A stretch of DNA of 11,400 bases, taken from the UHGV virus genome UHGV-1549577; one strand, given 5' to 3'. Origin of the DNA: a virus. Shown here piece by piece: positions 4,719 to 4,984 of the stretch; the stretch's first letter is position 1, and each line of letters begins with the position of its first letter. The position numbers and the translations under genes were made by a program. The notes beneath the pieces are model-generated. The model had not been told where the DNA came from. It saw only the letters and a program-made list of their open reading frames with translations, and did no database searches.

Positions 4719-4732
4719 GTCTGATAAGGAGG

Positions 4733-4754
4733 ACGGGAGGTGTGCGCCTCCCGT
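4733..4754 (+). other. Stable stem-loop just after the capsid stop codon
   Basis: Stem ACGGGAGG (4733-4740) pairs with CCTCCCGT (4747-4754) around a 6-nt loop. There is no downstream T-run, so it is not a classic intrinsic terminator. Confidence 0.45.
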
Positions 4755-4762
4755 AACAGGTT

Positions 4763-4984
4763 ATGGCAAAGATCCGATATCTGCATGGTACGCATGATGC
4801 CCGGGTCGGGGATATCCGTGATGTGGCACAGCCGTGTGCGGAGGTGCTGGTTCGCCTGGGAAAGGCGGAGTACATCACGGTGCGACGTCCGGCAGGTCAG
4901 AAAAAGAAACGTGATGCGGAGCATGGCGAATGTGGAACCTTTTACGGCGAACCCGAAAAAACCAGAAATCAGGACGTGACGTAA
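4763..4984 (+). CDS. Hypothetical small basic protein (73 aa)
   Basis: ATG-initiated ORF in the 211-bp gap between the capsid and portal genes. Its translation is more protein-like than the overlapping frame at 4740-4979. It overlaps the portal start by 55 nt. I recognise no motif in it. Confidence 0.35.
   Translation: MAKIRYLHGTHDARVGDIRDVAQPCAEVLVRLGKAEYITVRRPAGQKKKRDAEHGECGTFYGEPEKTRNQDVT

Follow-up and report, generated by a model that had tools for sequence, protein, structure and literature searches.

A hairpin between a distant Shine-Dalgarno sequence and its start codon: a candidate split ribosome-binding site behind the capsid gene of an Escherichia coli lambdoid prophage

The DNA analyzed here, hereafter the window, is a stretch of 11,400 nucleotides (nt) from UHGV virus genome UHGV-1549577 and represents the late structural module of an Escherichia coli lambdoid prophage of the BP-4795 / YYZ-2008 / 2851 type (Shiga toxin (Stx)-converting, Marienburgvirus-like). 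Behind its gene for a prohead protease/major capsid fusion protein lie a stem-loop at positions 4733–4754 and a small open reading frame (ORF) of 73 amino acids (aa) at 4763–4984, which runs into the portal gene. The stem-loop is best explained, on comparative sequence data, as a new case, within a very common prophage module, of a rarely documented translational element, namely a hairpin-bridged or split ribosome-binding site (RBS) for the small gene, of the type described for genes 38 and 25 of phage T4. We assign this reading a probability of roughly 0.55. Hairpin-bridged RBSs have been curiosities known from a few T4 genes; if the reading is correct, the present element is a second, independent, and phylogenetically conserved instance, and the design is in use outside the T-even phages, in a module carried by about a quarter of complete E. 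coli genomes and by many Stx-converting phages. The model is easily testable with compensatory stem mutants.

An anti-Shine-Dalgarno duplex scan places the Shine-Dalgarno (SD) sequence AAGGAGG upstream of the small gene among the strongest of the module. This sequence adjoins the 5′ side of the stem and lies 30 nt from the ATG in linear sequence; in the same scan the other genes of the window have an SD 1–10 nt from their starts. No other SD at canonical spacing is found for the small gene, the window offering only AGG at 2 nt from the ATG, and no SD occurs in the U-rich spacers of relatives. The small gene is called by PGAP, although start prediction based on SD spacing would not account for its start. 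The geometry of the start region was measured by explicit stem enumeration over 63 unique upstream regions. A stem of 7–9 pairs is present in 61 of the 63, and in 61 GGAG(G) abuts the first paired base (0–1 nt) amid variable flanks. The distance from stem to ATG is 5–8 nt in all but one of the regions (62/63), with 29 different spacer sequences, and the linear GGAG-to-ATG distance is 24–31 nt in 61 unique relatives. By inspection, the segment from the capsid stop to the SD varies freely in sequence and length. Across the sequences compared, the SD/hairpin/AUG geometry is conserved.

With the hairpin unfolded, the SD would stand 30 nt from the AUG, beyond the reach of normal initiation, for which about 15 nt was taken as the upper limit. 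Folding would take up 22 of these 30 nt and leave the 8-nt spacer at 4755–4762, an optimal distance, and across relatives it would bring the SD to about 7–8 nt from the AUG. The comparative data thus suggest that the hairpin promotes initiation at the small gene. Distant relatives without a bridging hairpin have an ordinary SD 5–8 nt before the ATG, which indicates that the small gene depends on an SD. An earlier reading made from the letters of the window alone (the sequence-only reading) had noticed the stem-loop, and its 8 Watson-Crick pairs are present directly after the capsid stop as described; the place of the hairpin inside the RBS of the small gene, between SD and ATG, had been overlooked.

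The stem is formed by the arms ACGGGAGG (4733–4740) and CCTCCCGT (4747–4754), which enclose the loop TGTGCG; a ninth pair is gained if U4741-G4746 is counted, and six of the 8–9 pairs are G-C. RNAfold retains the hairpin in a 101-nt context. Perfect stems of at least 8 base pairs (bp) occur at only two loci in the window, where dinucleotide shuffling of the full 11.4 kb yields 1.05 ± 1.2, and the chance that such a stem lands inside a given 44-nt spacer is roughly 0.004. Among 81 close E. coli-type loci, variation in the hairpin is concentrated in the loop. Where the stem does vary in these loci, A4733G co-occurs with T4754C, exchanging an A-U for a G-C pair, with G-U intermediates present; C4748T likewise yields a G-U pair, and G-U pairs fit the sense (plus-strand) RNA only.

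Beyond the E. coli lineage, the stem itself differs. It reads GGCGGGG-GAAA-CCCCGCC in Salmonella phage FSL SP-016 and 49 unique IMG/VR sequences, GGCGAGG..CCTCGCC in L131, CGGGGGC-GAAA-GCCCCCG in L166, and GGCGGGGA-GUGA-UCCCCGCC in L168, and four different stem sequences fold at −15.7 to −17.8 kcal/mol. In an alignment of 54 unique sequences, 94.7% of the cells are paired, compared with 47–59% when the 3′ partners are slid. Both partners have changed (GC to AU or the reverse) in three of the seven pairs and in none of the slid controls, and a covariation score as high as that observed is not reached in any of 500 shuffles. Independent events are few, about three or four. A scan of positions 4500–5200 against Rfam gives no match at E ≤ 1. 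The pattern of substitution is that of a selected plus-strand RNA structure.

A split RBS presupposes a gene to be served, and the sequence-only reading had allowed that the small ORF might be non-coding. This possibility does not survive. The ORF matches phrog_829 over its full length (E = 3.6e-38, profile positions 1–63 of 63); all 20 distant family members match this profile too. A word-indexed search with the small protein returns E. coli relatives only, and an exhaustive HMMER search of 1.8 billion representatives returns 30 members, including proteins of 51–136 aa at 30–45% identity. Common to the members are the N-terminal 40 residues, M-(A)K-I-[RK]-Y-L-x-x-T-H-D-x-x-x-G-[DE]-x-[RK]-x-V-x-x-x-x-A-x-V-L-x-x-L-G-x-A-E-Y. 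At every locus examined, namely in Salmonella phage FSL SP-016 and contigs L164, L166, L168, and L170, the small gene is preceded by the protease-capsid fusion and followed by the portal gene. Viral contigs searched with the single distant protein P0062 gave no related loci, and an exact-sequence lookup of P0057 gave no matching contig. The sequence-only reading had proposed conservation and dN/dS as a check on the ORF, and both speak for a gene: over the first 40 codons of 74 unique sequences, the ratio of nonsynonymous to synonymous polymorphism (pN/pS) is 0.28 in the frame of ATG 4763, compared with 1.44 and 1.46 in the other two frames. By these sequence comparisons the ORF is a real, conserved protein-coding gene under frame-specific purifying selection.

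The same frame-specific ratio rules out non-coding sequence and also the overlapping ORF from GTG 4740 to 4979. According to this alternative, AAGGAGG serves that ORF, which is open for 79 codons in another frame and whose GTG sits 7 nt past the SD, and the annotated 73-aa ORF is spurious. The alternative ORF was rejected on its off-frame pN/pS of ∼1.45 and the absence of its GTG from all other clades; in addition, this GTG lies within the hairpin, and the N-terminus MAKIRYL belongs to the 4763 frame and is kept even in relatives at 30–45% identity. The alternative is effectively refuted. Recoding, that is, read-through or frameshifting joining capsid and small ORF, was likewise rejected because stops close both relevant frames: the capsid frame continues TGA-GTC-TGA-TAA, and the frame of the small ORF has a TAA at 4754–4756 before its ATG.

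The hairpin might instead be primarily a transcript 3′-end element behind the most abundant structural gene, its position in the RBS being incidental. As a 3′-to-5′ exonuclease barrier or weak attenuator it would raise capsid over downstream portal mRNA, much as the sequence-only reading had supposed when it proposed a 3′ stabilizer or partial attenuator. T-phi, the terminator after gene 10 of phage T7, is an example of a hairpin behind a major capsid gene, and the present hairpin resembles such post-capsid terminators in being GC-rich and right behind the capsid gene. Several observations favor this alternative, which we consider rather unlikely. A hairpin directly follows the capsid stop across the whole family, including distant contig L164. 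At the other long junctions of the window, 2742–2759 before the capsid gene and 8687–8701 before the major tail gene, further hairpins with a T-run are found. The distant members L170, L171, and L172 have at the capsid/small-gene junction an intrinsic terminator of canonical form, complete with U-run, and a normal SD downstream of it; in the main enterobacterial clade the hairpin, followed by AUUUUGC, passes a terminator-like scan. These last two findings also weigh against a split RBS, since the hairpin may have arisen as a transcript 3′-end or stability element and may still act as one. Two further points count against a split RBS. The sequences with the split layout all come from one enterobacterial clade, with about three to four independent stem types, so that the constant geometry could in part be inherited by shared descent. 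In addition, RNAfold can lengthen the main-clade helix through weak A-U and G-U pairing of the SD with the U-rich spacer, and this predicted helix would mildly sequester the SD rather than expose it.

For the window sequence itself, termination or attenuation is nevertheless ranked below the split RBS because of the missing U-tract and Q-antitermination. The GC-rich hairpin of an intrinsic terminator is present, whereas the 3′ U-tract is full in the distant relatives, weak in the main clade, and absent in the window, where the stem is followed by AACAGGUUAUG and the terminator scan calls nothing; an intrinsic terminator in the window was rejected for this reason. An attenuator has its canonical counterpart at the same junction in distant relatives and is not supported in the window. 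Lambdoid late transcripts are Q-antiterminated, and the Q-modified polymerase of these operons resists terminators. Unlike a post-capsid terminator, moreover, the hairpin separates the SD of the next gene from its AUG, and a 3′-end element leaves unexplained why GGAG abuts the stem, why the distance from stem to ATG stays at 5–8 nt despite spacer drift, and how the small gene is translated from an SD 24–31 nt away. The window has lost the U-tract and retained the SD/hairpin/AUG geometry. The bridging hairpin may have originated as a post-capsid terminator that was later incorporated into an RBS, and it may still protect the 3′ ends of capsid mRNA; it is possible for a 3′-end or stability role to coexist with that of a split RBS.

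The hairpin could also be an operator through which translation of the small gene and the portal gene is repressed or tuned by a bound protein, possibly the small protein itself, whose N-terminal domain resembles that of ribosomal protein bL9 (see below). Autogenous control has precedents in ribosomal proteins and in RegA and gp32 of phage T4. The predicted fold is that of an rRNA-binding domain and is accompanied by a basic tail, and the sequence is kept beyond the needs of pairing, GGCGGGG-GAAA-CCCCGCC being nearly invariant in the main clade. However, stem and loop sequences differ between the E. coli lineage, the main clade, and L166 while the N-terminal domain of the protein remains similar, which argues against sequence-specific recognition. 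In addition, the G-Y-A-R-N-F motif of bL9, whose residues bind rRNA, is reduced to A and L in the family alignment. An operator is improbable on this evidence.

The closest parallels to a split RBS for the small gene are the two T4 genes, for which a review (PMC3014915) cites Nivinskas et al. (1999) and Malys & Nivinskas (2009). According to this review, a hairpin reduces the SD-to-AUG distance from 22 to 5 nt in gene 38 and from 27 to 11 nt in gene 25, destabilizing mutations lower initiation, the evidence consists of mutants, reporters, and dimethyl sulfate (DMS) probing, and the split RBS is limited to a close T-even clade (PMC3014915). The layout is alike. In each case the SD stands too far from the AUG along the unfolded sequence (24–31 nt here, 22 and 27 nt in the T4 genes), a stable hairpin lies wholly between SD and AUG and leaves a short folded distance (5 and 11 nt in T4, 5–8 nt here), the site is an intercistronic junction in a late structural operon, and the layout is kept in a close clade and missing in more distant relatives. 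The differences are that there is no sequence relationship, the present element belonging to another gene in the head module of a temperate lambdoid siphovirus; that function is deduced here from comparative data only; and that the present hairpin may also derive from a post-capsid terminator. A literature search for further split RBSs returned nothing relevant.

The small gene is followed immediately by the portal gene, and the two are likely to be linked in expression. As the sequence-only reading had noted, the 73-aa ORF overlaps the portal start; the overlap amounts to 55 nt. The portal SD lies inside the small gene, and in relatives its equivalent, GCGGAG or GCGGGG, is kept and encoded by the last codons of the small gene. 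The portal N-terminus MWN(L/P)(L/F)RR is kept and the start ATGTGGAA is conserved in relatives, which confirms the portal start at 4930. The small gene of most relatives (45 of 52 unique sequences) terminates in ...GGC-T(A/G)A-TG, where its stop (TAA or TGA) overlaps the portal ATG in the classic manner of translationally coupled genes. In the window a GAA codon takes the place of this stop and reading continues for 18 codons to the TAA at 4982–4984, which accounts for the extension and the 55-nt overlap in the E. coli lineage. Long overlaps also occur in L166 (56 nt) and L168 (62 nt), and the 'ECGT..GE' of several long members corresponds to the portal N-terminus MWN... in another frame. The overlap is a lineage-specific accident, and the extension is probably neutral, because the tail of the protein is predicted to be disordered and frameshifted variants exist. 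The overlap of stop and ATG in most relatives suggests that translation of the small gene is probably coupled to that of the portal gene. Whatever controls translation of the small gene would then probably feed into portal translation as well, which would be a different route to the high capsid to low portal stoichiometry that the sequence-only reading had ascribed to the stem-loop.

An AlphaFold2 model of the small protein, built with the family alignment, consists of an ordered N-terminal domain and a disordered tail (Table 1). Conserved residues in the N-terminal domain are Y6, T-H-D 10–12, G16, A26, L29, and A35. The tails are unrelated among members, varying in length and sequence, and are mostly K/R-rich; in the window the lysine/arginine-rich middle noted from the sequence alone reads RRPAGQKKKRD. 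Two members, P0066 and P0072, carry a C-terminal HeH/SAP domain (E = 3e-8). Variants P0032, P0034, and P0042 change frame after an A-rich tract at ∼4900–4910 (CAGAAAAAGAAACG); they are either genuine frameshift alleles that the disordered tail accommodates or errors of sequencing or assembly.

A Foldseek search of the PDB with the model of the window protein returns almost exclusively bL9 N-domains (40 columns, root mean square deviation ∼1 Å, 25–33% identity, probability 0.99–1.0, E 0.1–0.3) and also YqbF of the Bacillus subtilis skin prophage. For a second model, that of P0066, the top PDB match is YqbF over both domains, followed by bL9 N-domains, whose E-values across the two models range from 0.06 to 0.3; the HeH region of P0066 matches FluMu gp35/HI1506 (2OUT) with E = 0.025. 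Among predicted viral structures the fold matches many small uncharacterized phage proteins, some of them labelled DUF7210. The small gene belongs to a widespread class of uncharacterized capsid-adjacent phage proteins (phrog_829, YqbF-like, possibly DUF7210-like). Sequence tests against bL9 are not significant: Pfam gives no Ribosomal_L9_N match at E ≤ 1 in 22 family members, hmmsearch of the PDB gives E = 1.1 for bL9, and hhalign gives a probability of 1.5% with hand-entered L9 sequences. The protein is accordingly described as having a bL9-N-domain-like fold and not as a member of the bL9 family. It shares with the bL9 N-domain (NTL9; Ribosomal_L9_N in Pfam) the beta-beta-alpha-beta fold and the A26/L29 register, but lacks the bL9 C-domain and connecting helix, and the family has its own T-H-D motif in place of a conserved GYARNF.

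Searches of PHROGs, Pfam, and PDB sequences return only families of unknown function, apart from HeH/SAP in the two members. YqbF (PDB 2HJQ) and HI1506 (PDB 2OUT) are comparable: each is a small phage protein in which a flexible linker joins an alpha/beta N-domain to a C-terminus resembling nucleic-acid-binding domains, and each presumably has its gene directly behind the major capsid gene in its prophage. The window protein differs from them in having a short basic tail and no HeH domain, and the similarity of N-domain sequences is not significant. Literature searches gave only passing mentions of YqbF and nothing on DUF7210 or HI1506. Phage lambda encodes gpFI after its capsid gene E and gpW before its portal gene B; these are similar by position only, as small head-module proteins with a flexible charged region, and no sequence or fold similarity to them is detected. 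Position, basic or HeH tails, and fold suggest that the product is probably a small accessory protein that binds nucleic acid and serves head assembly or DNA packaging. The assembly or packaging role suggested from the sequence alone is plausible in view of position and the basic or HeH tails. A phage mimic of the bL9 N-domain, or an RNA-binding protein acting on translation, would be notable; this idea, which derives from fold resemblance only, is most improbable. Such a protein might bind its own SD-adjacent hairpin and autoregulate the small gene and portal gene, or might occupy the bL9 site on 23S rRNA without the C-domain 'strut' and loosen reading-frame maintenance while the late genes are expressed. 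bL9 restrains frameshifting and bypassing, and the module in the window presumably depends on the G/GT tail-chaperone frameshift.

Table 1. Coordinates of features in the window. Strand and remarks are given where available.
Feature	Position	Strand	Remarks
terS	496–1059		first of the module genes in order
terL	1056–2717
Prohead protease/major capsid fusion gene	2781–4718	+	Pfam Peptidase_S78 + Phage_capsid; phrog_617, E = 2e-261
Shine-Dalgarno sequence AAGGAGG	4726–4732	+	anti-SD duplex −11.9 kcal/mol
RNA hairpin ACGGGAGG-ugugcg-CCUCCCGU	4733–4754	+	8–9 bp, −15.7 kcal/mol for the isolated hairpin; candidate bridging element of a split RBS
Spacer AACAGGUU, hairpin base to ATG	4755–4762	+	8 nt; proposed SD-to-AUG spacing when folded
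Small conserved gene, 73 aa	4763–4984	+	phrog_829; BP-4795 ORF57; annotated 'hypothetical protein'
N-terminal domain, aa 1–40	4763–4882	+	beta-beta-alpha-beta; AlphaFold2 predicted local distance difference test (pLDDT) score ∼90; bL9-N-domain-like predicted fold
K/R-rich C-terminal tail	4883–4981	+	predicted disordered, pLDDT <50
Portal SD GGAG	4918–4921	+	8 nt upstream of ATG 4930; inside small gene (codons Ala-Glu)
GAA codon replacing small-gene stop	4928–4930	+	TAA or TGA in 45 of 52 unique relatives
Portal gene	4930–6294	+	Pfam Phage_portal, E = 1.4e-81
Repeat protein	6291–7190		followed by head-tail connector and tail genes

The layout of the capsid-portal region is ordinary once the small gene is taken into account. 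The capsid gene ends with TGA at 4716–4718, followed by TGA and TAA in the capsid frame, and the distance from there to the portal ATG (4719–4929) is indeed the 211 bp that had been described as an unusually long intergenic region. Since the small gene is real, however, the true intergenic spacer behind the capsid gene is 44 nt (4719–4762), and the apparent gap consists of an annotated conserved gene plus this spacer. Tight ATGA-type junctions elsewhere in the module are found as reported, at 1056/1059, 6291/6294, 7187/7190, and 8313/8316. Of 5426 complete E. coli genomes, 1244 carry the 500 bp surrounding the locus, as do 92 phage records, with identities of 90–99.8%. The module also encodes Ad1, Hc1, gp10-like, and gp17-like connector proteins.

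Other junctions of the module also carry hairpins, one of which precedes each of the three genes that follow a gap of >40 nt. The junctions before the capsid gene (2742–2780) and before the major tail gene (8687–8723) share one cassette, composed of a GC hairpin, a T-run, and (T)CAGGAGGC 3–4 nt before the start; it reads GGACCGCtgcgGCGGTTT-TTTTATTTTCAGGAGGCTGAT-GTG in the former and CCCGCcgcgtGCGGG-TTTTTTATTATCAGGAGGCAGA-ATG in the latter. In distant relatives the small gene uses the same order of hairpin, T-run, and SD. The other perfect 8-bp stem-loop of the window (CACCACCAcgacTGGTGGTG, 1010–1032) lies within the 3′ end of terS, 24 nt upstream of the start of terL (1056), a gene for which no good SD is present at normal spacing. 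In the distant, AT-rich contig L164, the capsid stop and the small gene are separated by a 417-bp insertion (1766–2182), which holds a terminator-like hairpin and a small ORF and has a 12-nt direct duplication (GGCAGCCTGAAA) at its flanks; by sequence the insertion looks like a moron placed exactly at the capsid/small-gene junction. In L171 (1–2500) the capsid gene is seemingly split or frameshifted, with calls of 470 and 196 aa, and a small reverse-strand gene with a faint RHH_1-like match is inserted between capsid and small gene.

The repeat-protein ORF downstream of the portal gene (also at 4692–6077 in L002) is fused with the portal gene by PGAP in SCU-104 as a 'frameshifted portal' pseudogene, and phrog_2271 (859 positions) covers the two together. 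It is a separate gene with an ATGA overlap with the portal gene, and it contains tandem repeats of ∼54 aa (..DVRPMLEQMVKEAVSHIPVPRDGRDYDPDVLQKAVNDAVANIPQPADGKSITPD..) and a C-terminal domain with a faint CBM_5_12 match. The copy number of the repeats is variable: with 299 aa, the protein of the window is 162 aa, or three repeats, shorter than that of BP-4795 (461 aa), and relatives range from 244 to 347 aa.

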